Assembly (NCBI GenBank): GCA_964554765.1
Contig: CAZKPS010000002.1
Span: forward strand, 63,808-121,435
DNA: 57,628 nt
Reading direction: 5' to 3'
Source of the DNA: an uncultured Candidatus Saccharibacteria bacterium
GTDB taxonomy: Bacteria > Patescibacteriota > Minisyncoccia > Phycocordibacterales > CAIRYW01
Shown: positions 14,396-38,002 of the stretch, piece after piece
How positions within the stretch are numbered: position 1 is the stretch's first letter
Layout of the letters: each line of letters begins with the position of its first letter
Program-made: the position numbers and the translations under genes
Notes under the pieces: generated by a model
Told to the model about the DNA's origin: nothing
Seen by the model: only the letters and a program-made list of their open reading frames with translations
The model's database searches: none

Positions 14396-14413
14396 ATTAA
14401 TATAAAAACCACC

Positions 14414-15490: not shown

Positions 15491-15543
15491 TTTTACCTCC
15501 TTTCCAAATAACGAATTTAAGTGATAATAACACGCGGTATAAG

Positions 15544-15577
15544 AAAATGCACGGCGCCTTTAGGCGCCGTGCATTTT
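15544..15577. terminator. GC-core palindromic hairpin family, copy 2
   Basis: aaaatgcacggcgcctttaggcgccgtgcatttt, downstream of rplK. Confidence 0.6.
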
Positions 15578-15691
15578 TATTTGTTTTAACTTGAGAAGTT
15601 TCCTATTTCACCCCCACTCCCACATACTTTTCTGCTGAAAAGTTGTGTGAGCTCGCCTCGACCTTATCGGTCTCCGGTCGGTCGAAGTGTC

Positions 15692-16117
15692 CTATTTCAC
15701 TTCGACGCCCATACTTCGGCAAGTTCCTTCGATGATTTTGATTGCGGCTTCTATTGAACCAGCATTCAAATCTTGCATTTTCTTTTCTGCAATTTCTTTA
15801 AGCTGTGCCTTTGTAATTGTTCCCACCTTCTTCTTGAGATTTTCTCCTGAACCACTTTCGAGCTTGAGCATCTTTTTTACGAGAGCAGAAGCTGGAGGAG
15901 TCTTAAGGACGAAATCATAAGATCGGTCTTCATATACTGAGATTTCTACTGGGATGATATCTCCGTGCATCTGTGCAGTCGCATCGTTGAATTTCTTTAC
16001 GAAATCTCCGATGTTAATACCAGCCTGACCAAGTGCAGGACCTACTGGTGGAGCAGGAGTTGCCTTCGCTGCTGGAATCACCAATTTCAATTTCTTTAAT
16101 ACTTTCTTTGTTGCCAT
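15692..16117 (-). CDS. rplK: Ribosomal protein L11
   Basis: [26 protein letters not shown]; 141 aa. Confidence 0.95.
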
Positions 16118-16188
16118 AATTGTAATTTATTTAATAAATTTCTGTTGTTTCCTGAGAAGCCCCTCTCGGGCAAGAAACTATTCGGTCG

Positions 16189-16731
16189 CTATATTTTTCG
16201 AATTTGAAGGAAATCAAGTTCTACAGGTGTCTCTCGTCCGAACATTGATACCAATACCTTAACCTTTCCTCGCTCACTGTCAACCTCCCCTACTTTACCT
16301 TCAAGATCCTTAAATGGTCCATCTGAGATGATGACTGCGTCTCCAATATCGAGATCAATGTTGTGCTTTGTTGTACCTGAATTCATTCGTCCAAAAAGTG
16401 TATCAACTTCTTGTTTATTGAGGGGTACCGGGTATACTCCAGATCCAACAAATCCTGTTACACGAGGAGTGTTTCGTACTACATACCAAGAATCATCTGT
16501 CACAATCATATCTACGAGGATATATCCTGGGTAGATTTTCTCTTCTTCTTCCACTCTCTTACCACCCTTGACCTTGATTTTCTTTTCTGTAGGAACAAGC
16601 ACATTAAAAATCCGATCCTCCATACCTAGAGACTCGATTCGCTGCTTTAGATTTCGAAGCACTGCGTTCTCGTATCCAGCGTATGTGTGGATTGCATACC
16701 AATTTCGCTCTCCTTCTACTTGTTTTGCCAT
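16189..16731 (-). CDS. nusG: Transcription termination/antitermination factor NusG
   Basis: NWYAIHTYAGYEN..; C-terminal KOW (GDAVIISDGPFKDLEGKV). Confidence 0.95.
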   Translation of the reverse strand: MAKQVEGERNWYAIHTYAGYENAVLRNLKQRIESLGMEDRIFNVLVPTEKKIKVKGGKRVEEEEKIYPGYILVDMIVTDDSWYVVRNTPRVTGFVGSGVYPVPLNKQEVDTLFGRMNSGTTKHNIDLDIGDAVIISDGPFKDLEGKVGEVDSERGKVKVLVSMFGRETPVELDFLQIRKI

Positions 16732-16769
16732 AATTTAATTATTTAAAAATTGATAAAATCTAAAGTCTA

Positions 16770-16949
16770 TTAGAACAACTTTCCGACTCCGATTCGAAGC
16801 ACATAATCCAAAAGTCCGAGATAGATTGCTACCGCAAGAGAAAGAATAATCACAACAAGAGTAAACAGAGTTGTCTGCTTTCGTGAAGGCCAAGTAACAT
16901 GAGCCATTTCTGCCTTTACTTCTTTAAAATAATCAGTGATTTTAGACAT
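16770..16949 (-). CDS. secE: Preprotein translocase subunit SecE (59 aa; below the ORF-track size cutoff)
   Basis: Manual translation: MSKITDYFKEVKAEMAHVTWPSRKQTTLFTLVVIILSLAVAIYLGLLDYVLRIGVGKLF. Canonical position upstream of nusG. Confidence 0.8.
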   Translation of the reverse strand: MSKITDYFKEVKAEMAHVTWPSRKQTTLFTLVVIILSLAVAIYLGLLDYVLRIGVGKLF

Positions 16950-17065
16950 ATGGATTTGAATTTATACTAAAAAACCCCTCTCGGGGTAGGTAGTACAATA
17001 ATACACCACGAAGGAGTGGAAGTCAACGGGGTGGAATATTGAATGTCGAGGCTAGAATATAGCAA

Positions 17066-17095
17066 AATAAGCCGCCCCTACGGGGCGGCTTATTT
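17066..17095 (-). terminator. Hairpin terminator after the SIMPL-domain gene
   Basis: aaataagccgcccctacggggcggcttattt. Confidence 0.6.
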
Positions 17096-17137
17096 GAATT
17101 TGTATTTATCTATATACAAAATCCTATATTCAATCTT

Positions 17138-17935
17138 CTACTTAATCCTGTAAGTCACATTTACATTAACCGTGATCTTGTTCTGACCCTTTGCAATATC
17201 AGGCGCTACAGGAGAAGCTCCTCCACCAATACCCATTACCTTTGATTCCATTGCATACATAGGATAAGCAACACCATTTTGATCTTCGTAGAATGAAGAT
17301 ACTCCGACTATTCGTACCCCGAGTTCCTTTACAAGCGCACCTGCTTTTGTCTTTGCATCTTCGATAGCTTTTGATCGAGCTTCTGCCTTGAGAGCCTCAG
17401 AATCATCAATTGTAAATGTAAGACCACTGATATTTGTAACTCCAAGTGCCCCTACCTTAGAAAGAATATCCCCTGCTTTATCTGTGTTTCTGACTTTTAC
17501 AGAAATAGTTTGTGAGACTTCATATCCAATAAGTTTTGGTGATGAAGATGGGCAAGGATATTTGATACAGACAATCTGTGTGTAGTCATATTTTGGGTTG
17601 GCACTATAATCCGTTGTCTTTATATCCTTCTGTTCTATACCCACCTCTTTCAAATACTTCATCACCGCATTAGTCTTTGTAGAAGATTTATTGTTTGCTT
17701 CTGTCACATCTTTACCTTCTTCAGTAATTGAGAATGAAAATGTTGCAATATCAGGCACTGCAAATACTTCACCTTTACCTTGCACAGTAATCATATCCTG
17801 TATTGCAGTCGAACTCCTCTCTCCAATGTGTGCAAACTCATTAATAGATTTTGCTAAAAGAAGAACAGCAAGAAGCACAAGGACCGCGAGTAGTGCTTGC
17901 TTAATTTTCTGCGATGCCAATATATTGTTTTCCAT
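17138..17935 (-). CDS. SIMPL / DUF541 domain secreted protein
   Basis: N-terminal TM/signal; ITVQGKGEVFAVPDIATFSFSI..VMKYLKEVGIEQKDIKT.. Confidence 0.7.
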   Translation of the reverse strand: MENNILASQKIKQALLAVLVLLAVLLLAKSINEFAHIGERSSTAIQDMITVQGKGEVFAVPDIATFSFSITEEGKDVTEANNKSSTKTNAVMKYLKEVGIEQKDIKTTDYSANPKYDYTQIVCIKYPCPSSSPKLIGYEVSQTISVKVRNTDKAGDILSKVGALGVTNISGLTFTIDDSEALKAEARSKAIEDAKTKAGALVKELGVRIVGVSSFYEDQNGVAYPMYAMESKVMGIGGGASPVAPDIAKGQNKITVNVNVTYRIK

Positions 17936-17938
17936 AAT

Positions 17939-18250
17939 TTAATTATTAAATGCTTGTAAATATATCCGAGCCCTTATTATATCATCACTCAATCTCTTTT
18001 GTATCGCAGAATCCTGGGTCTTTAGGAACTCTGTAACTTCAGGGGTCTCCATAAGATTAACGAACTTTTCAAGTTCTTTAATATAAGCCAACCTCGGATC
18101 CGTAATCTCAACCCCTCCTACTTGCAACCAGAGTTTTTCTTCTGCAAGATTTGCCTCACCATCTTCAATACGAGCTAAAAGCACATCGAAATTACGACAA
18201 ATATTAGCAGCTCTCTTGTTATTCTCAAATGCAAACGGATCCGCTTCCAT
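17939..18250 (-). CDS. Hypothetical protein
   Basis: 103 aa ORF tightly packed between the folD and SIMPL genes. Confidence 0.4.
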   Translation of the reverse strand: MEADPFAFENNKRAANICRNFDVLLARIEDGEANLAEEKLWLQVGGVEITDPRLAYIKELEKFVNLMETPEVTEFLKTQDSAIQKRLSDDIIRARIYLQAFNN

Positions 18251-18252
18251 AA

Positions 18253-19107
18253 TTATATTTTTATTGCTTCACAGAGATTTTCAAACAAACTCGCTACAGT
18301 CATTGGTCCCACACCACCCGGCACTGGTGAGATTGCATAGACCAAATCCTTCACATCTTCAAACATTACATCGCCCACAAGTTTACGAGTCTCAACTTCT
18401 TCCAAAGTCTTACCTACCACACTGTTAGTCCCCACATCAACTATCACTTGCCCTTCTCTGACCATTTCCTTCGTGATAAGTCCTGCCCTCCCTACTGCCA
18501 CAACCACAATATCACTTTCTTTTACCACATCTTTGAGGTTTTCGGTTTTACTGTGGGCGATAGTGACCGTCGCATTTTCTTTAAGTAGAAGCATCGCCAT
18601 CGGTCGCCCCACAAGTAATGATCGCCCAATAACGAGAACCTTTTTACCAACCAATTCTATATTATATTCTCGAAGGAGAGACATTACACCTTTTGGTGTT
18701 GCAGGCACAATACCGGTATCATCTCCTTGAAATATTTTTGATTGGTTGAACGAATGTAGTCCATCAACGTCTTTCTTTGGATCTATTGTTTCGATAAGAC
18801 TTCTCTTGTCCAGATGTTCTGGAATTGGAAGCTGTAATATTATTCCGTGAATATTATTGTTGGTATTCAGTTCATTGATTTTTGCAACAACATCATTTTG
18901 AGAAACATCTATATTGAGAGTTATGTGTTCTACTTTGGCACCTATTTTATCTGCAAAGGCTTTCTTGTGTTTGATATAGATATTTGACTCTTCGATAGCT
19001 CCAATCTGGATAATTGCAAGTACTGGCATCACACTACTCCCCTCAATTCGCTTTTTGAGTTTTTCTGCTATTTCCCTACTTAGTTTTTTGCCATCGAGTA
19101 GTATCAT
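18253..19107 (-). CDS. folD: Bifunctional methylene-THF dehydrogenase / methenyl-THF cyclohydrolase
   Basis: MILLDGKKLS..YIKHKKKAF-type region..GIILQLPIP..VLVIGRSLLVGRPMAMLL..PVPGGVGPMT. Confidence 0.95.
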   Translation of the reverse strand: MILLDGKKLSREIAEKLKKRIEGSSVMPVLAIIQIGAIEESNIYIKHKKAFADKIGAKVEHITLNIDVSQNDVVAKINELNTNNNIHGIILQLPIPEHLDKRSLIETIDPKKDVDGLHSFNQSKIFQGDDTGIVPATPKGVMSLLREYNIELVGKKVLVIGRSLLVGRPMAMLLLKENATVTIAHSKTENLKDVVKESDIVVVAVGRAGLITKEMVREGQVIVDVGTNSVVGKTLEEVETRKLVGDVMFEDVKDLVYAISPVPGGVGPMTVASLFENLCEAIKI

Positions 19108-19181
19108 AAGGATAACTCTAGCATATTTTAAGTATAAAAAAAGGCGGTTTGCGAAAGCAAACCACCGAATCCGGCCACCAC

Positions 19182-19593
19182 TTAATCGTGAATAATGATT
19201 CGCTTGCTAACTGGGCAAAGAACAAAACTCAACCCTTTTGAAATCAATTCACCTAGGAGTACAGCAAACTCCTTTCGATTCTTGGGAATATCCATAACAT
19301 CTAAGGAAAGTTGAAACCAATCAACTTCCCTAAAAATGTGGCAAGACGGAGGTGTAAATTCCGAATTGCCATCAACTCGCCATAGTCGTATAACAAGGCC
19401 CCGATTCTCCTGTGAGATGTCTTGCCAGTTCCTCCTCAGTGACAAAGCCTCCTTGACTCCTTTTTGGAAACTCAAGACGAACCCCAGATTCGCCAAATGG
19501 AATTACAGACGGAAAAGGCAGGTCATCGATTGCATTTGCAAGATAGACGAGCAGTAATTTATGGTTTACACCTCTGAGATTGAATTTCGACAT
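19182..19593 (-). pseudogene. Two overlapping same-strand ORFs (73 aa and 104 aa) that would fuse into one about 136-aa protein with a 1-nt frame change
   Basis: ORFs 19372..19593 and 19182..19496 overlap in different frames. A gggg run lies in the overlap (..ggagaatcggggccttg..). Confidence 0.3.
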
Positions 19594-19887
19594 ACGATAT
19601 GGTTGTTAGTGAAAAAAAACAAATATCCAATATCTTGAGGTTTCCCTCTCGGATAGGTGAGCTCCGTTGTTGAAGCGCACCATCCCAAAAGCGAAATAAA
19701 AACACCAGCCCCTTTACAGGACTGGTGTTTTTGGAGATTACGCAAAATCACTAATCCTGTATAGGATTGTTCCAGAAATAGAACCCAAAGAAATTTCGTG
19801 TGACTTTTAACATAAGGTATAGAATACTCTCAAAATCAGAAAAGTCAAATCGATGGAATATTGAATATTGTATGTGGAATATAGTGA

Positions 19888-19907
19888 GATGCACGGCGCC
19901 GTGCATC
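19888..19907. repeat. GC-core palindromic hairpin family, copy 3 (shortened variant)
   Basis: gatgcacggcgccgtgcatc. Confidence 0.5.
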
Positions 19908-19933
19908 TTCCTTGGATACTTGTTACTTGAAAC

Positions 19934-19953
19934 CCTGCCTGCCGGCAGGCAGG
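19934..19953 (-). terminator. 20-nt perfect GC palindrome directly after the kinase stop
   Basis: cctgcctgccggcaggcagg. Confidence 0.5.
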
Positions 19954-19967
19954 TTGATTACTTACCC

Positions 19968-21326
19968 CTATTCTTTTGGCAATGAAATAAAGAATGTTGC
20001 CCCTTTTCCTTCCATTGATTCATACCATATCTTTCCTCGATGTTTTTCTACAATAAGTTTTGAGAAATAAAGCCCCAATCCTGTTCCTGATGAATGCGCA
20101 TCTCGAGCATTATTAGCTCGGAAAAACTTTTTGAACATATTCTCTCTTTGAGATTCTGGAACACCGATACCAGAATCCTTAATATAAATTGTGTGAGAAG
20201 TATTGGCATCAATATATCCTATTCGGATTGAACTTTTTTCTCCGGAATATTTTGCCGCATTGAGGATAATATTTGAGAACACTCTTCCTATTTTATTGTT
20301 ATCACACGGACAGTACACCTTATCAGGAACATTACCTTCATACACGACAGCGATTTCTTTTCGATGGAGCGCTTCTCCAACATCTGCAACAACACTCTTT
20401 ATAATATCCAAAAGATTATAGTCTCCTATAGAAAGCGACATCTCAGTATCCTGTTCAAGATGCCCCACATCGAGAAACTCCTCAACAAGCTCTGCGAATT
20501 CATCACTCTGCATCATCAAGTCTTTTACATACGAAGACTGATCGGCAGTCAAAATTCCAAAATCTTCATGTACCAACGCTCGAAGTCCTCCTTTCATCTT
20601 TGTTACAAATCCTCTAATCTCGTGTGACATAAATGATGTAAATTCTAATTTTACATTGTTGAGCTCATTTAATTTTTCACGAACTCTCATCTTATGAAAA
20701 ACAAACAAAAGCATCGCAAGAACAACAGCTACCACAAAAGGAAACAGGGAGACCAGTATAATATCCTTTATGAGTTTCGTTGCATCAATATCAATCCCAA
20801 CCATTGCTACTGGTAGTCCAGTCTTCACAGAGATAATAGGAGCAGATGCACTCACCCACCTTCCCCAAGCATCAGTATATGGATCCTCAGCAAAAGAAAC
20901 GCCTCGCAGGAAATTATCTATCTCATTTTTGGTAGTCTGTTCATACAACTCACCTGGTGGAGAATATGTATCACGTGACTCAGGACTCTCCGAATCGACA
21001 TAAAAGAAAAGCTTTTCTACATCTTGCCGATATCCCAGTATATACAAGAATCGTGAATCTTCATTAACAGATCTCAGATCAACCAATTTCTTCTTCAAGT
21101 AGATATAGTTTGGATTTAGCAGATCGGATTCATTACCCTGAAGACTTGTGAGCATATCAGAATCAAGTGTTCGTGCAATATTATCAACACGATTGATAAG
21201 TGCATTTTTTTCATTTTCATACACTATGTGTCCAAAATACCAAGAGATTACAGCACCTAAAATGAGAATAACGACAGTTTGAAAGATGACGAAGGATTTT
21301 GAATAAAATGAAAATCTATTATTCAT
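19968..21326 (-). CDS. Sensor histidine kinase (N-terminal TM, extracytoplasmic domain, TM, HisKA, HATPase_c); no response regulator adjacent
   Basis: FTSFMSHEIRGF (H-box); NIILNAAKYS (N-box); DSGIGV, GTGLGL (G-boxes). Confidence 0.85.
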   Translation of the reverse strand: MNNRFSFYSKSFVIFQTVVILILGAVISWYFGHIVYENEKNALINRVDNIARTLDSDMLTSLQGNESDLLNPNYIYLKKKLVDLRSVNEDSRFLYILGYRQDVEKLFFYVDSESPESRDTYSPPGELYEQTTKNEIDNFLRGVSFAEDPYTDAWGRWVSASAPIISVKTGLPVAMVGIDIDATKLIKDIILVSLFPFVVAVVLAMLLFVFHKMRVREKLNELNNVKLEFTSFMSHEIRGFVTKMKGGLRALVHEDFGILTADQSSYVKDLMMQSDEFAELVEEFLDVGHLEQDTEMSLSIGDYNLLDIIKSVVADVGEALHRKEIAVVYEGNVPDKVYCPCDNNKIGRVFSNIILNAAKYSGEKSSIRIGYIDANTSHTIYIKDSGIGVPESQRENMFKKFFRANNARDAHSSGTGLGLYFSKLIVEKHRGKIWYESMEGKGATFFISLPKE

Positions 21327-25211: not shown

Positions 25212-25925
25212 TCAACCTATTTTACCAATCTCTTCCTTACGAAATATAACCTTAGGCACTTCATCAGGTATCCCTGACAAATTCACCCTTATATCTTCGC
25301 AATTTTCCATCCCTCCACCTAATTCATTCAAGGTTTTGCCCGTGATTTGGTTAAGAAAAGCTGCTTGTGGAACCTCATGTGTAATGGCAAGATAGTAAAT
25401 TTTTCTTCCTTCTGGCAGTCCTTCTGATACCCTGTTTGAAATCCGCACGATTTTATTTAATCTCTCTGCAATATTTTCTGGCTCCTTTCCTTCTAAGACA
25501 TTCGGATTTTGTAGCCAGTATTCAACAGGATCCTCAATTCCTTCTTTTGCGAGTGGACCGATCACACCCCCAGCTTGAATTGATTGTCTAGTACGCGAGA
25601 TCAAAATATCAACATTTTCTATATGTTCTTGTGCAATTCGTTCTCTTATTGTACCTTCCATAATACTTTGTGTTTCTTGCGCCCTTCTAACTGGACTGGT
25701 AAGAAATTTGATCAAACCTCCGCCATTTTGCACAATCTCACTTAGTATCTCTATAGCTTTTTCTTTTGCGTGCTCCCTACCTATCTGTGTCAAAGCCGCA
25801 TCAATACTTTGATCTTCCGCTTCTGCATGACGAATAAAGCGAAGCTCAACTTCACGACCCTTATCTTTTTCCATTCCTTCAATATCTGAAGAATGATCTG
25901 GACCCTTTGGTAATTCCTCAATCAT
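25212..25925 (-). CDS. Histidine phosphatase (phosphoglycerate mutase-like) family protein
   Basis: ELRFIRHAEAED (RH[AG]E catalytic motif)..SPVRRAQET..ITHEV. Confidence 0.7.
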   Translation of the reverse strand: MIEELPKGPDHSSDIEGMEKDKGREVELRFIRHAEAEDQSIDAALTQIGREHAKEKAIEILSEIVQNGGGLIKFLTSPVRRAQETQSIMEGTIRERIAQEHIENVDILISRTRQSIQAGGVIGPLAKEGIEDPVEYWLQNPNVLEGKEPENIAERLNKIVRISNRVSEGLPEGRKIYYLAITHEVPQAAFLNQITGKTLNELGGGMENCEDIRVNLSGIPDEVPKVIFRKEEIGKIG

Positions 25926-27382
25926 ATAGTTAATATCACTTCTCCTGTCTCACCATTCAAAGTAACAGTGTCATTATCTTTGATAATTTTAGTCCCGTTT
26001 TTTGTACCTGTAATACATGGGATTTTAAATTCCCTTGAAATTATTGCTGCATGACTAGTTATTCCTCCCTCATCTGTGATAATACCCTTTGCAAGTTTAA
26101 TTATTGGAAGCAACTCTACTGTTGTCATACGGGTAACTAAGATATCATCTTTATTAAACTTTTGAATATCTTTCTGAGAGATGATAATCTTTGCTTTGCC
26201 GCTAACTGTTCCATTGAATGCAACAGCTCCTTTAATTTGCTTGTTATTAGATGAATGATCCCGTTGTTCCACTTTTTCTATTAATCCCTCCGCTTCTTCC
26301 CCTTCCGTAATTGTAAATATTCCGTCTTTGAATAACAAAAAAGATGCAGACATTCTTTTATTTAGCTTTTTCTTTGAAAGAAACTCACCTTTTATCATCA
26401 GATGGTGCACTTCCTCTGGTTGGAGCCATTTCACATCTTCAGAAGTAAGATTGCGGCGCCTCCCTATTTCACCAAAGAGCTTCTTGCTTAAGTGATGTGA
26501 GATCGCAAAAGTGTTTCTTGCTGTTAAACGAATCCATGTCGCAAGCGATATATACTCAAACAAATAGGCAATATCCTCAGACATTTGTAACTTTTTAATT
26601 AGTTCAGTCTTGTCCTTTTTTACCTTCTTAGAATATTTCTCAAGTGTACTGATTTTCTCCCTTATCTCATTAGAAGAATAGTTGCTTAACTCTTCAAGTT
26701 TTTTTAGAAAATGACTCTCGTCCCAAGATTTCACTTCGTCACTGATAACCGGCAAACCCCCAAAGAGAAATGTATGGAGTTTAAGTAATTTATCTTTTTT
26801 TGTATCTGAAAGCCTATTGTTCTTTAGGAGATGGCTAATTTTAAATAGAGCAAGTTCCTCTTCTTGAATAAGAGTGTACTCAGGCCAAACAGAAAGTCTG
26901 GCATATATTTCATCAAACTGACTCGTATTCTCTTTCAATGCTTGTTTTAGCCATGCTGTTGTTTTCACCTCACATGTTTCCGTATGAAGACTAAGATTGA
27001 AAGATGGGTACAGCAACTTATAAGCATCACAGAAGCGATCATAAAGATTCAACAATTTTTTATCAGAAACTTTTCCTAGGTCCGTTTTCTCTAAGTAGCG
27101 ACTTATCTTTAAAAGCCTTTTGCGATCTTTTTCAAAAACTTTGCGAACTTTGCCAATAAAAGAAGGATGGTCCTTAATCACTGACTCTATCTGAAGACTT
27201 ACCTTCCTTGTGTCCTCCGGATCTGTCCATTGAGTGAATTTCATTCCTCTTCTTGTAGTAAGCCTATGTTGTATTGAACACCCAAAGACCTGCCCCATAT
27301 ATCCCACAGAGGAGATAAACATATAGTTCTTCCAAAAATCAGATTCCCGTTCCACAAGCTTTACCCACTTTGTTTCTTCCAT
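25922..27382 (-). CDS. Protein with an unknown 380-aa N-terminal region and a C-terminal PEP-utilising-enzyme mobile (swivelling phosphohistidine) domain
   Basis: C-terminus: DDILVTRMTTVELLPIIKLAKGIITDEGGITSHAAIISREFKIPCITG. 4-nt overlap with the downstream phosphatase gene. Confidence 0.7.
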   Translation of the reverse strand: MEETKWVKLVERESDFWKNYMFISSVGYMGQVFGCSIQHRLTTRRGMKFTQWTDPEDTRKVSLQIESVIKDHPSFIGKVRKVFEKDRKRLLKISRYLEKTDLGKVSDKKLLNLYDRFCDAYKLLYPSFNLSLHTETCEVKTTAWLKQALKENTSQFDEIYARLSVWPEYTLIQEEELALFKISHLLKNNRLSDTKKDKLLKLHTFLFGGLPVISDEVKSWDESHFLKKLEELSNYSSNEIREKISTLEKYSKKVKKDKTELIKKLQMSEDIAYLFEYISLATWIRLTARNTFAISHHLSKKLFGEIGRRRNLTSEDVKWLQPEEVHHLMIKGEFLSKKKLNKRMSASFLLFKDGIFTITEGEEAEGLIEKVEQRDHSSNNKQIKGAVAFNGTVSGKAKIIISQKDIQKFNKDDILVTRMTTVELLPIIKLAKGIITDEGGITSHAAIISREFKIPCITGTKNGTKIIKDNDTVTLNGETGEVILTI

Positions 27383-27530
27383 ACAATTGCAGTATATCAG
27401 AAAAATAGTGTCTCAGTTATACCTACTAAACTAGTCTTAATTTCTTGGGGTCGCGTGGTCGCGCGTGTTAGAAAAATATTCGAGGAGAACGACGATGCAA
27501 CAGTTTACATTCCGAGCTTCAAGAATTGCT

Positions 27531-27977
27531 ACCCCACACCTGCGCTCACTATATCGAATAAATAATTCTTACTCCTGCATTTTACCTGCAAATGCAGGTG
27601 TCCACCATTTTCCGCCCTTTTTAAATGGTGGTTGACCGCCGTTTTTTCGCCGTTTATAAACGGTGTCACCATACACTCTCACTCACTATCTACTCTAAAA
27701 ATCGGTTCCCGTTAATTTCCCGTTATTACGGGAACCTTGTAGCGGTTACCCCACAGTCTCATTCACTATTTTGTTTTGCTCAACGAGAACCGTAATCAGC
27801 GTAAATTCCTTGCGGACCAACTTGCCTGTTATTTCCCTGTTCTATCAGGTTGACCACCGTATTTCGACCGTATTAACGGTCAGGAGTTAACAGGCATGAT
27901 CAGGCGTTTTCAGGCTGCAATATTTTGCCACAAATCGGACTTACGGCTTATTTCACCCCACCTTGCTCTACACTATT
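27531..27977 (+). repeat. Four direct copies of an about 22-nt motif ACC(C/A)(C/T)AC-N9-CACTAT, at 27531-27556, 27667-27690, 27748-27770 and 27954-27977. Six X-N-X-N-X' modules (27574-27881) are interspersed.
   Basis: accccacacctgcgctCACTATa / accatacactctcactCACTATc / accccacagtctcattCACTATt / accccaccttgctctaCACTATt. Example modules: CCTGCAttttaCCTGCAaaTGCAGG and TTCCCGTtaatTTCCCGTtattACGGGAA. Confidence 0.8.
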
Positions 27978-28469
27978 TCCCAGCGCAGCATTAATTTTCT
28001 GCGCGAGATCACTCGGATCGAAGCGGCCATGATTGCTCAACCTCAAGAGCGGCACACCAGCTGCTTTGAGAATGCGTTCGACCTCCTTGTCTCTGTCCTG
28101 CCTGTCGGACCGTTCATGAGTTTGGTCATCGAGCTCGATTGCGAGCTTTGGAGCGATGTATGCTCTATCGCAGAGTACAAAATCCACTGACTTGCCGTTG
28201 ATGTGGCTAAATGCGCCGCGCCAGTTCTGGCCGGCTACTTTATGATCAACGATTGTCGGAAGATGGGCTTGGGCGAAAATCAAATAGTCCTTACCAACTG
28301 CTTGGACCAGAGCATCATGACATTCATACTCCGCTCGAGAGAGGAAGAACGGCTTTCGCTTGTATACATAACCTTTGGGACCAACCGGATCAGCACCACC
28401 CTTTCGCAAGAACTCGATGAGCGCAGCAGCTGTAATAATTGCGATCAATAAAATAATAAGTTTCGTCAA
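27948..28469 (-). CDS. DUF2726-like (PD-(D/E)xK nuclease-related) protein with an N-terminal TM
   Basis: SVDFVLCD..PKLAIELDDQTHE..RDKEVERIL.AAGVPLLR. GC-richer than the upstream operon genes. Confidence 0.6.
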   Translation of the reverse strand: MTKLIILLIAIITAAALIEFLRKGGADPVGPKGYVYKRKPFFLSRAEYECHDALVQAVGKDYLIFAQAHLPTIVDHKVAGQNWRGAFSHINGKSVDFVLCDRAYIAPKLAIELDDQTHERSDRQDRDKEVERILKAAGVPLLRLSNHGRFDPSDLAQKINAALGNSVEQGGVK

Positions 28470-28474
28470 AACAC

Positions 28475-28813
28475 TTATTTTTGAATTTCCTCGTAATCTT
28501 TTTTATTGCCACCAATCCGTATGTAATCCTCGCAGCCATCAACTGAAATAGCACCACACGCGCATGGGACCATTTTCTTGTGCGTGTTCCAGTGGATTTC
28601 TGTGCCGCATTTTTTGCACTTGATATAAGTATCTTTCTTATTTTTCTTGTTGTACTCATTAAGCTCCTCCCTTGTGATCGGCCGGTAGATTTTATCCATA
28701 ATTGTCAAAAGTACAGTCGCCTCAGTCATGGCGGTTTCGTCATCGATATCCTGGCCGGGATTCTCTTTACGCCAGATTGCCTTGTATTCTTCTAGGGCTT
28801 GTTTTGAAATCAT
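28475..28813 (-). CDS. Small protein: N-terminal helical module shared with ORF 39285..39545, plus a C-terminal zinc ribbon
   Basis: EEYKAIWRKENPGQDIDDETAMTEATVLLTIMDKIYRPIT; CKKCG..17..CACG. Confidence 0.45.
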   Translation of the reverse strand: MISKQALEEYKAIWRKENPGQDIDDETAMTEATVLLTIMDKIYRPITREELNEYNKKNKKDTYIKCKKCGTEIHWNTHKKMVPCACGAISVDGCEDYIRIGGNKKDYEEIQK

Positions 28814-30376: not shown

Positions 30377-32641
30377 TTAATTCAAATCCAAGAATTCCCA
30401 TTCTTTTAGATTATTGGGATCGTAAGAATAGATATGGTTACCATTGATTCTCCAACTGCTCTTGTCGTGGAGAACAATCCCACCAAAAAGCTTTTTACCT
30501 TTCTTGCTGTGGTCTTTGATATATTTCGCCAATCCTTCAGCTCTCGATTTTGCCAACTCTGCCGTATAACCACCCTTAGTATCAAACAAGCCAATACTTC
30601 CGTCTTTCATAAGCACAATAAAATCAACATAGAATGCCTTTTGGAGCCCATACTCTGTATGTGGGACCGCAAAATAGGTTGAATCACTCTTGCCGTTCTT
30701 AAACCACCACGTTACTTTCTTTGCTTTCTCCAGGACGTCAATAAAGTCACCTTCGATATCACTATCTTCTTCGAACATATTCAAGGAGTTACCGCCCGTG
30801 ACTTTCGCAAAGTACGGTTGAATTATTGACCGTTTATAATCTTTCTTTGTGAATGAAAGATTGTAGTTAATTATCTTAGGGATATTCCACAACTCATCGT
30901 TCTCAACTAATTCGCTTTTACCCTTACCCACTTTTTCTTCGTAAAGTTCTTTGGCTTTATTGATTGTGTCAACAAATGCCTGCTTGTTTTCTTCGGCTAG
31001 AACTATTGCCTGAATCTTTGCCCAATCATCAACACCCATCTTGAACGACTTATCGAAGAAACGATAGATGCAATCATTTATTCTTTTGATTGAACGCAAC
31101 TCTGGGGCAAACGGGGCAAGATTATTACGGACAAACATATCAAAGGCATTCTGTAACTCAACCTCATTCTTAGGGATATCCAAGGTCCCCTTCTTTTCTA
31201 TACTTCTCACTTCCTTATCAGGATCGACAATTGTTCCATCAGCAATAAGCTTAGTGCTTACAATTGTACTTTTTAGAGAAACTCGTGATTTAAGTTTTAA
31301 TTGTTCTGCTGCATCAAAGAAGACCGGAACAAAATCCGATGATAGTCTAGTTTCTTCTCGGAAACGCTTCGAATGGTACGAAACCAAATTAAGATCCTCA
31401 TAATCATCCCTTCTTTTTCCTTCAAAGACTGTTATGTAATCACGAGAAATATCTTCAGCAACCTTTATATCTTCAAGGCTAGTATAAACATATCCAAGGT
31501 TAAGGTCCTGGTCCTTATAGTGATGTTGTTCCGGCATTCGCATAATACGACCGAGAGTTTGAATAGAGAAAGTCATATTCTCTTCTCTCCACTGTCTAAA
31601 GAGGACCAGTATAGAAGCTCGGGGGCAATCCCAACCAAGCGCAATAGCCTGTTTGAAAATCATGACTTCAACTTCGTTCTGATTTTTCTCAATATTATCG
31701 AGGTTTATCTTATTGTCTTTTTCAGAGAGATAGACAGCCAGCTTCCCATTCTCTGTAGTAATTCCATATTTTGTAAGTAACTCAACAACAACATCCTTTT
31801 TATCCGGAATTCCTGACTTAGAGTCTGGAATTTGAATAAGTAACAATGGATTAACGTTAGCACCTTCTTTTTCCAACTTCTTAGAAAGTTCTAAGCGTTT
31901 CTTAAGGGCACTCTCAAGGACCAGCTCGTCTGCCGCCTTATCGTTCTTTTTCTTATCAATAAGATAATCATTGAATCCTTGGTTAATGGCTATCTCCTTT
32001 TTTATCATTCCTTCCTCTTTCACATCCTTTAGCTCAACCTCTACGATTCTATTGGCATTATTAAGCTGCGGAGTAGCAGAGACTTCGATCGTAACCTTCG
32101 GACCGATATCCTGAATCAGTTCTTTTGACTTATCACTGCTTGCAGTATGGTGACTTTCATCAATAATCAAGATGATTGTTCTGCCTTCATCTTTTGTCCT
32201 AGCAATTACTGAGGTGAGATTATTATCACGCTCATTTGCGCGAACATAGACATTGTCTTTTTTGTTTATACTTGCCCAGTTTAAAAACAAAACCTCATTT
32301 TCAGCAATTCTTTTATCTTCCAAATCCTCAAAATAGGAACATTTAATACCTACACCAAACTGGTCATAATATTTTTTAAGGTTATTACGACTCTGGTCGT
32401 GTAGCTTGTTAACTGCAAGCCAGATAAAAGAGAATTTCTTACCATCAACTCGTGAGTCAATAAGGCGTTTTAAAAATTCAGCCATCATCAAGGTCTTACC
32501 AGACCCCGTTGGAGACTTGAAGATACAGACTTTGTTTCCATCTGCATCCAAAAGCCGATTGACTTCTTGCTTTAAGTCAACGATAGCTCTTTCTTGATAA
32601 TTTTTAAATTCGATCCACATATTTTTATTTGAAAATTTCAC
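30377..32641 (-). CDS. res: Type III restriction enzyme Res subunit (SF2 helicase plus C-terminal PD-(D/E)xK)
   Basis: FKSPTGSGKTLMMAEF (motif I); LIIDESHH (motif II); C-terminal VDFIVL..GLFDTKG. Confidence 0.8.
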   Translation of the reverse strand: MKFSNKNMWIEFKNYQERAIVDLKQEVNRLLDADGNKVCIFKSPTGSGKTLMMAEFLKRLIDSRVDGKKFSFIWLAVNKLHDQSRNNLKKYYDQFGVGIKCSYFEDLEDKRIAENEVLFLNWASINKKDNVYVRANERDNNLTSVIARTKDEGRTIILIIDESHHTASSDKSKELIQDIGPKVTIEVSATPQLNNANRIVEVELKDVKEEGMIKKEIAINQGFNDYLIDKKKNDKAADELVLESALKKRLELSKKLEKEGANVNPLLLIQIPDSKSGIPDKKDVVVELLTKYGITTENGKLAVYLSEKDNKINLDNIEKNQNEVEVMIFKQAIALGWDCPRASILVLFRQWREENMTFSIQTLGRIMRMPEQHHYKDQDLNLGYVYTSLEDIKVAEDISRDYITVFEGKRRDDYEDLNLVSYHSKRFREETRLSSDFVPVFFDAAEQLKLKSRVSLKSTIVSTKLIADGTIVDPDKEVRSIEKKGTLDIPKNEVELQNAFDMFVRNNLAPFAPELRSIKRINDCIYRFFDKSFKMGVDDWAKIQAIVLAEENKQAFVDTINKAKELYEEKVGKGKSELVENDELWNIPKIINYNLSFTKKDYKRSIIQPYFAKVTGGNSLNMFEEDSDIEGDFIDVLEKAKKVTWWFKNGKSDSTYFAVPHTEYGLQKAFYVDFIVLMKDGSIGLFDTKGGYTAELAKSRAEGLAKYIKDHSKKGKKLFGGIVLHDKSSWRINGNHIYSYDPNNLKEWEFLDLN

Positions 32642-34322
32642 GATACACCTTAAGGATCACTTCGGGAATAGCACAAAGTGTGACCTTCGACTTTACATCC
32701 TTAAACTCCTTCTCATGAGGATCGTCTCCCAATGAGAACACATAGGTATTAAAGGAACCATCAATTTTATTGATAGCTTTTTTATAATCTTCTATTGCAT
32801 CTTCGTAAAAAACGATACCAACATACTTATCCTTTCCTTTGAAAATCTTAAAATCACTACCATCTTTTATTTCTTCAAAGGCATCTTCCTTGATACACAA
32901 CATGTCTGTAGACTCACTTACAAGCTTTCGTTTATTACGATCTGTTGGTTCTGCTTCAACAAAATCATTTGTATAGTACTTCAAGCCACTGCCTAACCCC
33001 GTCACTTTTTCGCCTTTAGTATCTTTATATCCACCAATTACCTTTTTAATTCTCGGGTAACAAATGTCTGTACAAATATTGTTTTCATTATTTGTACAAA
33101 GAATAAATTTACGGTTACCTCCATCTTCTTGATTCAGCTTCAAAACTGCATGGCCAGTACTACCCGAACCGGCCATAAAATCTAGAATCGTCGCATTTTT
33201 GTCTGTACTTAAGGTAATGATCCTTTTTAATAGTGAAGTTGGCTTTGGGGAATCGAAGCTGTTTTCTGGAAGCAATTCTTTTAATTCACGTCTTGCATCA
33301 TCATTGCTACCCACCTCGTCATATAGCCATAGGGTTTTTGGAATAACACCATCTTTCATTTCATTTAGGTATTTCTTTAATCGAGGGACTGCCGTTCCTT
33401 TTGCTCCAAACCATATCTGATTCTCCTCATCAGCTTTTCTTAGAGTTTCCTTACTAAAACGAGGATACGTTCCAGGTGGTGGTCCCCAAGTAACACCATT
33501 TTTAAATGTATAAGAATATCCTGAATCACTCTCACTACCACTTTTAGCATGTAGTGGTTGCGTCATCCATGGACCACGAGGGTCGTTATCAGCATTTTTG
33601 TATCGGTCATCTTGCTTCTGTGTCCTCGGTAGAAGGTTTAACTTAAAGTTCTCTGCTTTTTTTGCATAACAAAGAATAAAATCGTGGGTGGATGAAAAAT
33701 ACTTAGCATCGTTACTCTGAGTATACTTCTTCTGCCATATTATATTGGCAATAAAGTTTTCCTCTCCAAATACTTCATCGCAAAGCATCTTGAGTGGCGC
33801 ATGTTCATTATCATCAATACTTATAAAGATTGCTCCGGTTTCTTTGAGAAGGCTTCTTGCTAACCTTAGTCTTTTTTCCATGAAAGCAATCCATTTGCTA
33901 TGCCTAAACGGATCTTCTTTTTTAACATACCCACTCGCAAATCTATCGTTGTAAATAAAATCGCTGTTTCCTGTGTTGTAAGGAGGGTCAATGTAAATTA
34001 AATCTATAGCCTCCTGGTGAGTAAAATTTAGTACCGCCAAAGAGTGATAGTTATCTCCCTCTAAGAGTAGGTTAGTAATTTCAGAATCCTTATTGAGGAT
34101 TTGTTTTGTTTTTACCTCTTTCAAAATAGGAAAAGGCTTACCCGCCATTTCATTAGGAAACATCTCGTTAGGAGTTCGAGCATCAGGATTGATTAGGATA
34201 TCAATCTTTTCTTCAGGGACATCTCTATGCCAAACGAGACCGTAAGTAGTCTCACGGATTCTTTTAATCTCTTTTATCAACTCATCTTTGGACCACTGGT
34301 CGTAATCAATTTTTTTAGCCAT
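32625..34322 (-). CDS. mod: Type III-like DNA methyltransferase (Mod; N6A/N4C beta class)
   Basis: DLIYIDPPYNTG (motif IV); ILDFMAGSGSTGHA (motif I); 17-nt overlap with res. Confidence 0.85.
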   Translation of the reverse strand: MAKKIDYDQWSKDELIKEIKRIRETTYGLVWHRDVPEEKIDILINPDARTPNEMFPNEMAGKPFPILKEVKTKQILNKDSEITNLLLEGDNYHSLAVLNFTHQEAIDLIYIDPPYNTGNSDFIYNDRFASGYVKKEDPFRHSKWIAFMEKRLRLARSLLKETGAIFISIDDNEHAPLKMLCDEVFGEENFIANIIWQKKYTQSNDAKYFSSTHDFILCYAKKAENFKLNLLPRTQKQDDRYKNADNDPRGPWMTQPLHAKSGSESDSGYSYTFKNGVTWGPPPGTYPRFSKETLRKADEENQIWFGAKGTAVPRLKKYLNEMKDGVIPKTLWLYDEVGSNDDARRELKELLPENSFDSPKPTSLLKRIITLSTDKNATILDFMAGSGSTGHAVLKLNQEDGGNRKFILCTNNENNICTDICYPRIKKVIGGYKDTKGEKVTGLGSGLKYYTNDFVEAEPTDRNKRKLVSESTDMLCIKEDAFEEIKDGSDFKIFKGKDKYVGIVFYEDAIEDYKKAINKIDGSFNTYVFSLGDDPHEKEFKDVKSKVTLCAIPEVILKVYREIFK

Positions 34323-35338: not shown

Positions 35339-36478
35339 ACACCCACACACATACCGAAGACCCCGTAAGAAGTCTAGTTCGAACTTTTCGGAATTTCGGC
35401 GACACGCCGTGAAGATCGGCAAGATCGCTGAATACCCTTACTTTTGATGGAAAAGCGTACACGCGGGCGAACAGGTGGCAATTACGGGGTAAGAAGCTCG
35501 TCTGCGAGACGTGTCTGCCGGATTTCAGCCGTTTTTGCTTTGACCTGTTGCTGCAACTTCCAGCTGTTACCATGACTTAAAAGCCCGAGATATGACTGGA
35601 TCGTTTCTTCTTTCCCCTGCTTTGCCTTAATGCCATTCATCATCCTGCGCTTGGTTGCGGTGCGTAGGACGCGATGATCTGGAAAATGCACCCAGCCTAA
35701 AAAGTCCACACCGGATGCCACGGTGCTGATTGAAATTTTATTTGGATGCATGGTGAGCTTGAGTTTGTCTCTCAAAAAATCCTGCATCAGTGGCAAGATA
35801 CGTTCGAGGTAAACGCGATCGTGAGACACAACAGCAAAGTCATCGGCATAGCGAATATAATATTTTGCTTTGAGCCTATGCTTCACAAATTGATCGAACT
35901 CATTCATGTAAACATTCACCAGGAGCTGCGATGTAAGGTTACCGAGCGGAAGGCCAACACCTGCCGTAGTTGAATTGAAGCTGGAGACGATCATCGACAG
36001 TAGCCAGAGGATATCTTGGTCCGGAATATACTTACCCATTATTGCGAGCAAGGTGGTCTGATCAATATTCGCAAAAAACTTTCTAATGTCACACTTCAGG
36101 ACCCACGTTGAACGTGTGTTGTTTTGCGAAACGATATTGAAAAACTGTTTGAAGCGCCTTATCGCTCTATGTGTTCCCTTTCCAGGTTGGCACGAGTAGG
36201 AATCAGAAATAAATGTTTTAGTAAAAAATGGAGAAAGTGTGCGATGCAGAGCATGGTGCAATAGCCTATCTTGCACACTCGCCTTGTGTATATCGCGTGG
36301 TTTGGGATCGGAGATTTTAAACGCCTGATATTTCGAATGCGAATATGTTTTCGCGGCAAGCTCGCGGTGGAGAGAGATTATATTCGTCATTAAATTACGC
36401 TCGAACTCTTGAACGTCTTTACGAGCTCGCTTGCCGCAAACAAACTCTTTCCACGCTTCGAGGAGATTATCGAGCGAA

Positions 36479-36928
<450 letters not shown>

Positions 36929-36946
36929 GGAGAGAAATGAAGTGAG

Positions 36947-37049
36947 TTGCGAACGCCCGCAAACCACCAGTTGTCGTTCCAGTCGTTGTCGTTGCGGTTG
37001 ACGTTCACCTTGCGCTTGTCGTTCCAACGGTTGAACGTGGCGTAGCATT
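36947..37049 (-). repeat. DGR template repeat (TR), 103 nt, sense on the minus strand
   Basis: Aligns to 37386-37488 at an offset of +439. The sense strand encodes CYATFNRWNDKRKVNVNRNDNDWNDNWWFAGVR, rich in AAC codons. Confidence 0.9.
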
Positions 37050-37292
37050 GTACAGAGTCTCGTCTGCGTCACTGCCTCTCGAATACTCTCAAGGCTGTAT
37101 CGAATCCGGCATCATAATGCCTTAAAACTCTGTACCAAGTAGCTTCATTTTTTTGAAGTGTCTGCATGCACCACCCTATCTGAAGCCTTAACCGCAGATA
37201 CTCTCGGTGCATGGATACTGGGTTCGGTAGTGGGAAGCCGTAACCGCCCGCATATTCACCTACTGCCGACATAAGTATAAATGATTTTGTAT

Positions 37293-37334
37293 AAAAAATT
37301 TAGCCCCACTCCGACGAATCGGAACAGGGCTAAA
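37293..37334 (-). terminator. Rho-independent terminator after the DGR target gene
   Basis: Minus strand: tttagccc-20 nt (inner ccgattcgtcgg hairpin)-gggctaaa, followed by tttttt. Confidence 0.6.
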
Positions 37335-37347
37335 GACTAAGTTTCTA

Positions 37348-37361
37348 AGGACCGGAGTCCT
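37348..37361 (-). promoter_or_regulatory. Small GC hairpin with a 4-nt loop about 25 nt downstream of the VR; candidate DGR target-recognition hairpin
   Basis: aggac-cgga-gtcct. Confidence 0.3.
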
Positions 37362-37381
37362 GAGACACTCAGTGTTGAGAA

Positions 37382-38002
37382 CTACTTGCGAACGCCCGCA
37401 AACCACCAGCCGTCGCCCCAGCCGTCGTCGCGGCGGCCGACGCACACCCCGCGCTCGCCGAGCCAACGGCGGAACGTGGCGTAGCACCAGTGGCCTTTGG
37501 CGTCTTTCCAATGAGTGCCGTGAGGCTTCTCATCAGCGAAGGCAGGGTCCGCCTCGTTGACGGCTGCGACGGAAATCGGATCAGCGGGCTTGAGACCACG
37601 CAGTTCGTATTCCTTGTCGAGGTCGTCATCGGAGATGAAACCGTTGCGCTCCGAGAGATCGGGTTTGAAGAACACGATCTCGGCTTCGTCGCCCTCGCCT
37701 TTCGGCATCGCATCCACGACCTTACGGTCAGTGTATTGCGCGCGGCCGGTGGCTTCGATCGCCTCTTGCTGAGTGCGACCGCGATTCACCGGGACCTTGC
37801 GGACGATGAGGTTCGAGACCGCTTCAGCGCGTTCGCGGAAGGGAGAGAACATCATCATTCCGAGATTCTCGACTCCGAGAACCTGTTGGGCGACGTCTGA
37901 GGTGATCGAGGAACGATGCTTGCGCATCGCGTCCCGGAGTTTGTTGACGGCGTTTTCGATTTGGCCGTCGGTCATTTCGGCTGCAGTCATGATCTGTGTC
38001 AT
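37382..38002 (-). CDS. DGR target protein, 206 aa, no signal peptide; the VR encodes the last about 34 aa
   Basis: ..HWCYATFRRWLGERGVCVGRRDDGWGDGWWFAGVRK*; SD aaagga 8 nt upstream of the ATG. Confidence 0.85.
   Translation of the reverse strand: MTQIMTAAEMTDGQIENAVNKLRDAMRKHRSSITSDVAQQVLGVENLGMMMFSPFRERAEAVSNLIVRKVPVNRGRTQQEAIEATGRAQYTDRKVVDAMPKGEGDEAEIVFFKPDLSERNGFISDDDLDKEYELRGLKPADPISVAAVNEADPAFADEKPHGTHWKDAKGHWCYATFRRWLGERGVCVGRRDDGWGDGWWFAGVRK
37386..37488 (-). repeat. DGR variable repeat (VR) at the 3' end of the target gene
   Basis: 22 mismatches to the TR, and every one is at a TR adenine on the sense strand. The 3'-most 24 nt (ctggtggtttgcgggcgttcgcaa) are identical to the TR (IMH-like). 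Confidence 0.9.

Follow-up and report, generated by a model that had tools for sequence, protein, structure and literature searches.

A structured hairpin array at the probable left end of a Patescibacteria integrative island with a split serine recombinase gene

Why should a region of 565 base pairs (bp) that had been taken for non-coding carry four direct repeats and, between them, a series of short words that are each repeated directly and then inverted? The region lies beside the 3′ end of a DUF2726 gene in a stretch of 57,628 nucleotides (nt), here called the window, of contig CAZKPS010000002.1 from an uncultured Candidatus Saccharibacteria bacterium (Patescibacteria). I analyzed this region, its transcripts in public RNA libraries, and its homologs in other contigs. 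Both repeat patterns were confirmed to be real and non-random. Very probably, the region lies just within the left attachment site (attL) of an integrative island of about 15 kb (27448 to ~42494) in a Patescibacteria chromosome, and the recombinase gene of this island is split between its two ends.

The probable island end and the divided recombinase gene

Where does the repeated region begin? It was found that a unit of about 1 kb (27448-28468) recurs at about 92% identity in contigs of unrelated freshwater and groundwater metagenomes, with sharp ends and differing flanks, and the sharp-ended unit was confirmed on loci L017/L018. The unit consists of the DUF2726 gene and 500 nt of the supposedly non-coding region; it excludes the host flank and the gene for a PEP-utilizers-domain protein. 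All related contigs lose similarity at 27445-27448, beyond which their flanks vary contig by contig, and the homologous units (10 or more arrays) all open at the same (T)GGG(G)T beside unrelated sequence. At the other end of the island, the core TGGGG of the right attachment site (attR) is the complement of the ...CCCCA 3′ end of a tRNA-His. The two island junctions have this short core in common, one copy of it being in the tRNA 3′ end, and the same island end occurs in differing genomic contexts with a sharp break of similarity. The sharp-ended unit in different flanks, the split gene, the two TGGGG cores, and the common GGGT start are the reasons for reading this place as attL and as the end of an island. 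There is good support for a large serine recombinase having inserted the island in the 3′ end of tRNA-His, and comparative anatomy suggests that the island is mobile. The first-pass annotation had suspected an element boundary here, separating backbone genes from a restriction-modification (R-M) and defence block. A boundary it probably is, since the region lies directly inside attL, but the division is between the host chromosome and the island, and the R-M genes are cargo inside the latter.

How is the recombinase gene divided? The main part of the gene lies at one end of the island; its product has the Pfam domains Resolvase, Recombinase, and Zn_ribbon_recom and matches an integrase in PHROG (E = 7e-65). 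At the opposite end, the window read from 27440 in frame 0 gives WGRVVARVRKIFEENDDATVYIPSFKNCYPTPALTISNK*. L064, a more distant relative, has an intact large serine recombinase of 557 amino acids (aa), which is encoded convergently with the DUF2726 gene and ends in ...FRGAVVEEVRTIFEKRNDATIYIPDMQSIAVLA*. It was revealed that the left 118 nt of the unit correspond to the C-terminus of the recombinase as in L064. When 40915-42498 and 27451-27565 are joined at WG, the composite protein can be aligned with the L064 enzyme in one colinear stretch that spans the junction (E = 2e-42). In the simplest reading, crossover takes place within the recombinase gene at a distance of 34-37 codons from its stop codon, and integration moves these last codons to the opposite end of the island. 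With the attachment site of the element (attP) inside the gene, integration would necessarily put these codons at the other end. In the excised circle, 27451-27565 would be rejoined to 40915-42498, and the recombinase gene would be whole again.

A recombinase gene is also found near distant DUF2726 genes (40-45% identical) of the Saccharibacteria loci L009, L012, L014, L031, L032, and L036. There, a gene for a large serine recombinase lies within about 1-2 kb, upstream of the DUF2726 gene and on the opposite strand. The association of the DUF2726 nuclease with a recombinase is broader than the array-bearing lineage.

Repeat architecture and its conservation

As listed in Table 1, a repeat search gave four in-register copies of a 24-nt motif, R1 to R4, which are 71-79% identical to the reference copy and are spaced by 137, 80, and 207 nt. 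The pattern ACCCCAC-N9-CACTAT occurs three times without mismatch in the window, each time in the array (R2 carries two mismatches to it). With up to two mismatches it occurs eight times against 0.84 expected, and none of 100 shuffles reached eight. The four direct repeats of the first-pass annotation are thus beyond chance; two had been placed exactly (27531 and 27748) and two were off by one (27667 and 27954, in fact 27668 and 27955). The array proper, to which the description as non-coding rightly applies, is flanked within the 565 bp by the host flank, by the recombinase gene fragment with R1, and by the last codons of the DUF2726 gene with R4. Contrary to the statement that no open reading frame (ORF) explains the repeats, R4 and the left 118 nt belong to coding sequence.

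The modules between the R copies were examined by a scan of the whole window for an exact 5-mer that recurs 9-14 nt on and is then followed by its reverse complement. Modules M1, M3, M4, and M6 were recovered in 27574-27880, each with a spacing of exactly 11 nt. The other matches in the window are few and have scattered spacings, and shuffles give 3.8 matches at any spacing. M5 passes the scan with a 4-mer, and M2 is imperfect, as had already been noted. On either strand, the folding of the M1-M3 block is far stronger than that of shuffled sequences (z = -5.1 and -4.8); the z-scores of the array blocks range from -4.4 to -5.1, and the folding energies are equal on both strands. The words of the array are not enriched in the rest of the window.

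One further hairpin was seen on the plus strand at 27622-27650. Here, the 3′ arm of M2 and the first word of M3 give AAAUGGUGG-UUGA-CCGCCGUUU, followed by more U. This hairpin is terminator-like; it needs G.U pairs and hence exists on the plus strand only. A related pairing of the M2 3′ arm, with the second word copy of M3, appears in the RNAalifold consensus of the M2-M3 block.

Is the array peculiar to this contig? Homologous arrays were found in at least 10 other Patescibacteria contigs, at the same position each time. I compared 11 arrays, namely those of the window and of L018, L002, L003, L054, L056, L062, L070, L074, L075, and L077. They have three to five R copies and three to 10 modules, all in one orientation. 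The unit of the array is one R motif with an A-rich leader and one to three hairpin modules, and it is gained or lost whole, at R. The R4-R3 segment (27770-27954) is missing in L056, L062, and L070, and an RNA contig that lacks it has the joint 27747->27955, at which seven letters are shared. Additional units with the new words ACTGCA, CGTTG, GCTGGCTG, and GACTGT occur in L054, L056, L070, and L074. The array of L074 stops at R1, without the recombinase fragment.

Altogether, 37 distinct modules have one geometry, CYG-N8-CYG-N6 (or N8)-CRG, in which the 11-nt spacing is invariant. The first and second copies of a word are identical over about 7 nt, and the outer flank of the first copy alone extends the complementarity to the inverted copy. 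Since the flank pairs with the first copy only, the stable fold is a hairpin of 9-12 bp that has a second copy of its stem word in the loop, and a shorter hairpin can compete with it. Two alternative hairpins per module had been foreseen, and both the folding and the pairing of the module words bear this out. The three words of a module change together; for example, CCTGCA/CCTGCA/TGCAGG of M1 is CCTGTA/CCTGTA/TACAGG in L062. The stems are nearly pure Watson-Crick. An initial preference for the plus strand from wobble pairs was undone by the full count, which shows no bias (10 G.U vs 12 A.C).

What is kept between the arrays? M4 and R3 are identical between arrays that are about 80% identical overall, and M4 is conserved at the sequence level with its loop and spacers included. 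The T6 homopolymer of M3 has a constant length in nine orthologues, and the palindrome centre of M1 flips between AA and TT. The position, orientation, and module order of the array are kept across DUF2726 genes that are 72-94% identical. Moreover, the array persists where DUF2726 is lost; it then directly follows a free-standing gene for a small helical protein. In other islands, the free-standing small helical protein ends in the R-encoded tails NSEDKGGVK, NSEDKGGVTQ, and NSAEQGGVK, and its junction with R has two different forms. Whichever ORF adjoins the array thus enters it at R. More distant DUF2726 loci lack an array of this kind, and many DUF2726 genes are without arrays.

A sister type of island has other repeats in the place of the array (L064, 2514-2605; L066/L067, 2514-2660). 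Units of 10-11 nt are arranged first directly and then inverted: four or five TGGCTCTTT-like copies at 10-11-nt spacing are followed by four or five TAGGGCAAA-like copies. In L064, these units lie between the DUF2726 gene and the intact recombinase gene, and L066/L067 keep only a 3′ fragment of the latter.

Table 1. Coordinates of the features of the island and its surroundings in the window
Feature	Position	Strand	Remarks
PEP-utilizers-domain gene (486 aa)	25922-27382	minus	host side, outside the unit
Host flank	27383-27445		presumably followed tRNA-His until the island inserted; at present upstream of the PEP-utilizers-domain gene; outside the repeated unit
attL core TGGGG	27446-27450		identical to attR core 42490-42494; a reading of the sequence
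Detached 3′ end of the recombinase gene	27451-27565	+	encodes (WG)RVVARVRKIFEENDDATVYIPSFKNCYPTPALTISNK* (translation)
R1	27531-27554	+	ACCCCACACCTGCGCTCACTATAT; encodes YPTPALTI of the recombinase tail
Non-coding array proper	27566-27947		about 380 nt
M1	27571-27601		CCTGCA-N5-CCTGCA-AA-TGCAGG; long hairpin with 12-nt arms and 7-nt loop
M2	27602-27631		CCACCATTT ... AAATGGTGG; degenerate inner copy CCGCCC; 3′ arm can also pair with M3 CCGCCGTTT
M3	27634-27667		CCG-N8-CCG-N8-CGG; T6 spacer kept in all orthologues
R2	27668-27691	+	ACCATACACTCTCACTCACTATCT
M4	27703-27737		TTCCCGT-N4-TTCCCGT-N4-ACGGGAA; most conserved piece, nearly invariant in 11 arrays
R3	27748-27771	+	ACCCCACAGTCTCATTCACTATTT
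Branched unit	27823-27896		outer stem TGCCTGTTA/TAACAGGCA around M5 (CCTG words) and M6 (ACCGT words)
DUF2726 gene (Vsr-like PD-(D/E)XK nuclease fold)	27948-28469	minus	N-terminal hydrophobic helix; Pfam E = 4e-27; travels with the array
R4	27955-27978	+	minus strand encodes NSVEQGGV, the DUF2726 C-terminus
Fusion gene: three-helix protein (~58 aa) and DUF7695 zinc ribbon	28475-28813	minus	conserved backbone gene of these islands
Promoter-like piece TTGCCA-16-TACGCT (32 nt)	35450-35481	minus	heads the cargo operon; conserved
Diversity-generating retroelement	35482-37486		reverse transcriptase 35482-36600, minus; bAvd-like ORF 36431-36928
Template repeat/variable repeat pair of the retroelement	36947-37047 / 37386-37486		101 nt, 80% identity, at the 3′ end of the 206-aa target ORF 37382-38002
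Large serine recombinase gene, main part	40915-42501	+	ends ...LILEWGG*; stop codon inside tRNA-His when integrated
tRNA-His (GTG), integration target	42490-42563	minus	3′ end holds attR core TGGGG 42490-42494

Transcripts, a proposed role, and rival explanations

Is the array transcribed? In the wastewater metatranscriptomes X26-X29, the bins of the array have contig depths of 20-260 vs 0-26 for the bins of the DUF2726 ORF, and the array depth in metatranscriptome contigs is about 5-50 times that of the neighbouring ORF. The highest depth within the array is that of M4. A variant of the array is present in the marine metatranscriptome X31. In the DNA metagenomes that cover both (X2, X7, and X9), the depth of the array is similar to that of the ORF. 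The DUF2726 ORF and the array are linked in one RNA contig; others span attL, with the array on one side and 0.5-1.3 kb of the host flank on the other. These results indicate that the array is transcribed and accumulates.

Several familiar kinds of elements were tried and rejected. A chromosomal origin, suggested by the first-pass annotation, does not agree with the cumulative GC skew, which is monotonic through the region without a turn. The same annotation thought of an iteron or partition array phased by helical turns; however, there is no single word that recurs at least three times in helical phase, each module has a word of its own, the 11-nt spacing holds only inside a module, the R copies do not follow one another in phase, and no rep/par domain was found in the neighbouring or island ORFs scanned. 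Bent DNA or phasing over the whole array was dismissed because the A/T-tract periodicity at 10-11 bp is ordinary, 12-50% of background windows scoring as high. The likeness of R1 to a T7-type promoter is superficial, as had been supposed: it comes down to CACTAT(A), the motif occurs only in the array, R1 and R4 are codons of two convergent genes, and no polymerase was seen among the ORFs scanned, which were part of those in the window. R is not a general promoter motif either, being confined to the array and without sigma-70-like spacing in either orientation. No canonical intrinsic terminator was called in 27000-28500. An array of clustered regularly interspaced short palindromic repeats (CRISPR) does not fit repeats that are 71-79% identical and irregularly spaced, with paralogous hairpins as "spacers" and no Cas match among the neighbours. 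Dispersed palindromic repeats, i.e., repetitive extragenic palindromes and bacterial interspersed mosaic elements (REP/BIME), and uptake sequences were excluded because the words are not enriched elsewhere in the window. For a type III toxin-antitoxin RNA, a tandem array (by TRF) and a PADLOC match are missing, the neighbour is of the PD-(D/E)XK type, and the array is downstream of the gene. A link to the diversity-generating retroelement of the island was rejected since related arrays occur without it, and a guide RNA of IscB/TnpB or a retron RNA upstream of the 486-aa gene was rejected since this gene encodes the PEP-utilizers-domain protein outside the unit. Rfam gave no known non-coding RNA family at gathering thresholds (the best match at E <= 10 has 16 bits vs a threshold of 51). 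BLAST of the array against plasmid and phage collections found no homologous array, and the exact M4 pattern was not found in viral contigs.

What, then, could the array do? I tentatively propose that it acts as RNA, a mechanism that is possible but has appreciably less than an even chance. The combined statement, an island end with a split recombinase gene and an array acting as RNA, falls just short of even. In the proposed mechanism, two convergent transcription units would have the array in common as their strongly structured 3′ region. One of these would be the operon of the cargo and DUF2726 genes, in both the integrated and the excised states; the other would be the recombinase mRNA, in the excised circle only. 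The hairpins may give stable and abundant 3′ fragments, and they may shield each unit, as well as the host gene beyond attL, from the read-through of the other. Since integration uncouples the array from the recombinase gene, the expression of the recombinase could depend on whether the island is excised or integrated. The transcribed strand or strands, the effect on RNA stability or termination, and the role of the two hairpin registers are presumptive parts of this scheme. The RNA model is regarded as the most economical one; it fits the position of the array, the Watson-Crick symmetry of both strands, the abundance in RNA libraries, and the retention of the array when the adjacent gene changes. 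Equal folding energies and Watson-Crick stems on both strands are expected if both transcripts must fold. A bolder version is unlikely: the array might be a new state-sensing regulatory RNA with bistable hairpins, or the large serine recombinase might use R and the hairpins as a cassette-recombination site of a new kind. Bistability is considered because the stem word is repeated in the loop. As a state sensor, the array would be joined to the recombinase gene in the excised circle alone and would set the expression of the recombinase and accessory genes according to the integrated or free state of the island.

Several points weigh against these proposals. The RNA data are assembled contigs of public runs without strand information. 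Contig depth is a crude measure of expression, and conserved pieces pool the k-mers of many strains, which may inflate the depth of the array. In the orthologous alignments (RNAalifold), the pairs are kept, but double changes that compensate each other are nearly absent. Paralogous modules and M1 of L062 do show clear compensation; the support from covariation thus comes mainly from paralogous modules, which template-switch mutation could homogenise too. Canonical terminators are numerous elsewhere (36 in 1-20000 vs 14 expected), and the hairpins of the array are without their T-runs. The RNA model leaves unaccounted for the stem word repeated in the loop, the unvarying 11-nt spacing, and the invariant sequence of M4. 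A partner that binds a specific sequence would explain the strict spacing and the unchanging sequence of M4, whose loop is kept too, better than a hairpin alone. As to the island itself, neither an excised circle nor an empty site was found in the contigs of the source run, whose sole irregularity toward the att joints is a unitig break at 42463-42492. The nearest homologs of the flank genes are about 50% identical, so there is no closer relative for comparison.

A binding partner could act on duplex DNA rather than on RNA. Each module would then be a palindromic operator, CYG-N6-CRG, preceded at a distance of one helical turn by an additional half-site. A protein of the island, such as the small helical protein, the DUF7695 zinc ribbon, DUF2726, or the recombinase with its extra C-terminal segment, may bind it for regulation, for synapsis or architecture, or for the partition or replication of the excised circle. 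The 11-nt and 9-nt core spacings, invariant in all modules, agree with such an array, as do the conserved loop and spacers of M4, the classical-iteron-like units in the same place in the sister islands L064, L066, and L067, and the vicinity of attL and the recombinase gene. I still consider it unlikely, given that the words differ by module and covary with their own inverted copies, that the modules are out of helical phase with one another, that no Rep or Par protein was recognised among the island genes, that the fold of the small helical protein has no DNA-binding match, and that the GC skew gives no signal. It is also unlikely that the array is a mutational by-product. In that case, slippage and intrastrand template switching in a convergent spacer would make and homogenise the 11-nt duplications and quasi-palindromes, unequal crossing-over at R would alter the number of units, and the transcripts would be functionless read-through. 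The AA/TT flip of M1, the gain and loss of units at R, the few compensatory changes between orthologues, and the absence of strand bias in the pairs could all be explained in this way. What such a process does not lead one to expect is that the position, orientation, and module order are kept across the diverged DUF2726 genes, that M4 and R3 stay identical in surroundings of about 80% identity, that the T6 of M3 keeps its length, and that the array outlives the loss of DUF2726.

The remaining explanations give the array a role in recombination, in single strands, or toward the nuclease. If R were a site for the serine recombinase or another enzyme, with hairpins of the attC kind, then units and perhaps genes would be exchanged at R as cassettes. 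Every observed unit insertion or deletion does end in R, the ORF next to the array has R as its 3′ end whether it encodes DUF2726 or the small helical protein (with its two junctions), the array of L074 ends at R1 without the recombinase fragment, and the ACCCCA within R is complementary to the att core TGGGGT. However, deletion by homologous recombination or slippage needs no more than direct repeats of 24 nt, only 6 nt are shared with the att core, and the cargo genes are without flanking R. Large serine recombinases use pseudo-palindromic sites of about 40-50 bp, which R is not. Exchange of cassettes is improbable. Very improbable is a role in single-stranded DNA, in which the hairpins would fold on entry or replication (e.g., in natural transformation) and would prime the complementary strand or act as promoters. 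Multi-hairpin intergenic regions are typical of single-strand origins, and the hairpin potential is equal on both strands; nevertheless, nothing observed points to a single-stranded stage, neither an HUH nor a Rep gene was found among the island genes scanned, and the plasmid and phage collections gave no match. The slightest chance is given to a type III-like RNA antitoxin or decoy, an abundant RNA processed at R that would neutralise the DUF2726 nuclease and stabilise the island. The RNA is much more abundant over the array than over the nuclease ORF, G-poor single-stranded R segments lie between the hairpins of the repeated units, and the nuclease gene and the array travel together. However, arrays exist without DUF2726 and many DUF2726 genes exist without arrays, TRF finds no near-identical tandem units, the array is downstream and not upstream of the nuclease gene, PADLOC gives no match, and DUF2726 has a DNase-type fold (PMC3424549, PMC3710099).

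Island backbone, cargo, and known systems

Which genes accompany the array? The three-helix protein that is fused to DUF7695 in the window is the small helical protein of other islands. It belongs to a very conserved Patescibacteria family (about 60 aa; MISKQALEEFKEIWRKENPGQDIDD...; L064, 1807-1995) and is free-standing in many islands. The 5′ end of its gene has the top RNA contig depth of the neighbourhood, up to 383. A confident three-helix model was obtained, but no PDB match with E < 1. This protein is a candidate recombination directionality factor.

The promoter-like piece is 94% identical between genomes. In L002/L003 (3586-3617), it lies 45 nt upstream of the DUF7695 gene, whereas in the window about 6.6 kb of cargo lie between it and the DUF7695-DUF2726 pair (small ORFs, a helix-turn-helix (HTH) gene, type III mod/res genes, and two unknown ORFs). 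Since the piece adjoins the DUF7695 gene in L002/L003, the R-M genes and their neighbours are cargo inserted in a conserved backbone, which suggests a putative hotspot of cargo insertion within one operon. The island contains the DUF7695-DUF2726 pair, the two unknown ORFs, the type III R-M system, small ORFs, the diversity-generating retroelement, a winged-helix protein, and a 448-aa ORF. In the same place, related islands have type I or IIG R-M systems, Shedu, DUF4268, HigB/HTH, or other cargo. The retroelement looks complete, and the G+C content of its region is 0.45-0.56 vs about 0.38-0.40 elsewhere.

In the source metagenome X1, the unitig depth is 5.8-6.3 over the type III R-M genes, 9.1 at the left end, and 12.6-14.2 in the right part. 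The assembly graph breaks at 30771-30790, 31980-31996, 33526-33560, 36529-36569, and 42463-42492. The uneven depth and the breaks suggest co-existing strains with differing cargo.

The mobile elements and regulatory RNAs of Patescibacteria, or candidate phyla radiation (CPR), are almost unexplored. The islands described here define a family of tRNA-targeting serine-recombinase islands with defence cargo (type I, IIG, and III R-M systems, Shedu, toxin-antitoxin, and a diversity-generating retroelement). The backbone of this family would comprise the small helical protein, the DUF2726 nuclease, the hairpin array, and the integration-split recombinase gene. The array has a wide distribution, from freshwater and groundwater to wastewater and marine samples, and has no counterpart among curated families. 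If it is a functional RNA or a recombination substrate, it would represent a new class; if not, it would be a clear case of concerted quasi-palindrome evolution. The predicted attP and its host counterpart (attB), together with the reconstituted recombinase, could serve as a new integrase system.

Is a comparable system known? The array resembles REP/BIME, iterons, integron attC sites, ToxI, and lambda sib in single respects and fails the defining features of each. REP/BIME of enterobacteria are likewise mosaics of short palindromic units with specific linkers, variable in number and located at gene 3′ ends or between convergent genes. They are dispersed in hundreds of copies per genome and stabilise RNA 3′ ends. 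In contrast, the array is tied to one island backbone, and a stem word repeated in the loop of an X-X-X′ layout is not a feature of REP. Iterons and centromeres share with the array the short words at one helical turn, the direct and inverted copies, and the occurrence on mobile elements; R1 parC and the pMV158 origin have 11-bp repeats. However, iterons repeat one word many times in phase, beside rep/par, while each word of the array occurs three times only, the words differ per module, the modules are out of phase, and no rep/par gene was found. As with integron attC sites, the array lies beside a recombinase gene, its units share structure but not sequence, and ORFs run into the repeat. Unlike in integrons, the recombinase is a serine recombinase and not IntI, the "cassettes" are 56-183 nt without genes, and R is direct and non-palindromic. 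ToxI of type III toxin-antitoxin systems is a repeated and abundant RNA beside a nuclease gene on a defence-carrying element, to which the array is similar. Its differences from ToxI are that the repeats are not tandem and near-identical, that it lies on the downstream, convergent side, and that the neighbour has a PD-(D/E)XK DNase fold and not that of a ToxN-type RNase.

The closest parallels concern the 3′ end of the recombinase gene. Partition of the integrase gene on integration into a tRNA gene is known for tyrosine integrases, both for those of the archaeal SSV1 type and for int of myxophage Mx8, whose attP is in the gene. I found no description of an integration-split gene for large serine recombinases in a narrow and limited literature search. 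As with the SSV1 and Mx8 integrases, the crossover would be within the recombinase ORF, the target is a tRNA 3′ end, the 3′ part of the gene is separated, and the C-terminus is changed. Those enzymes are tyrosine recombinases, whereas the present one is a large serine recombinase of which only the last 34-37 codons are detached. In lambda, sib is a single RNase III hairpin that attP separates from int. Like sib, the array would be a structured RNA element beyond the 3′ end of the recombinase gene that is moved off by integration, which would make recombinase expression depend on the integrated or excised state. It differs from sib in that attP is inside the gene and in that it is a variable array of three to 10 short hairpins with R motifs. 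I describe the array as a structured intergenic repeat at the end of a mobile element, on an integrative island with a partitioned recombinase gene, and there is a modest chance that it represents a new class of regulatory RNA or recombination substrate.

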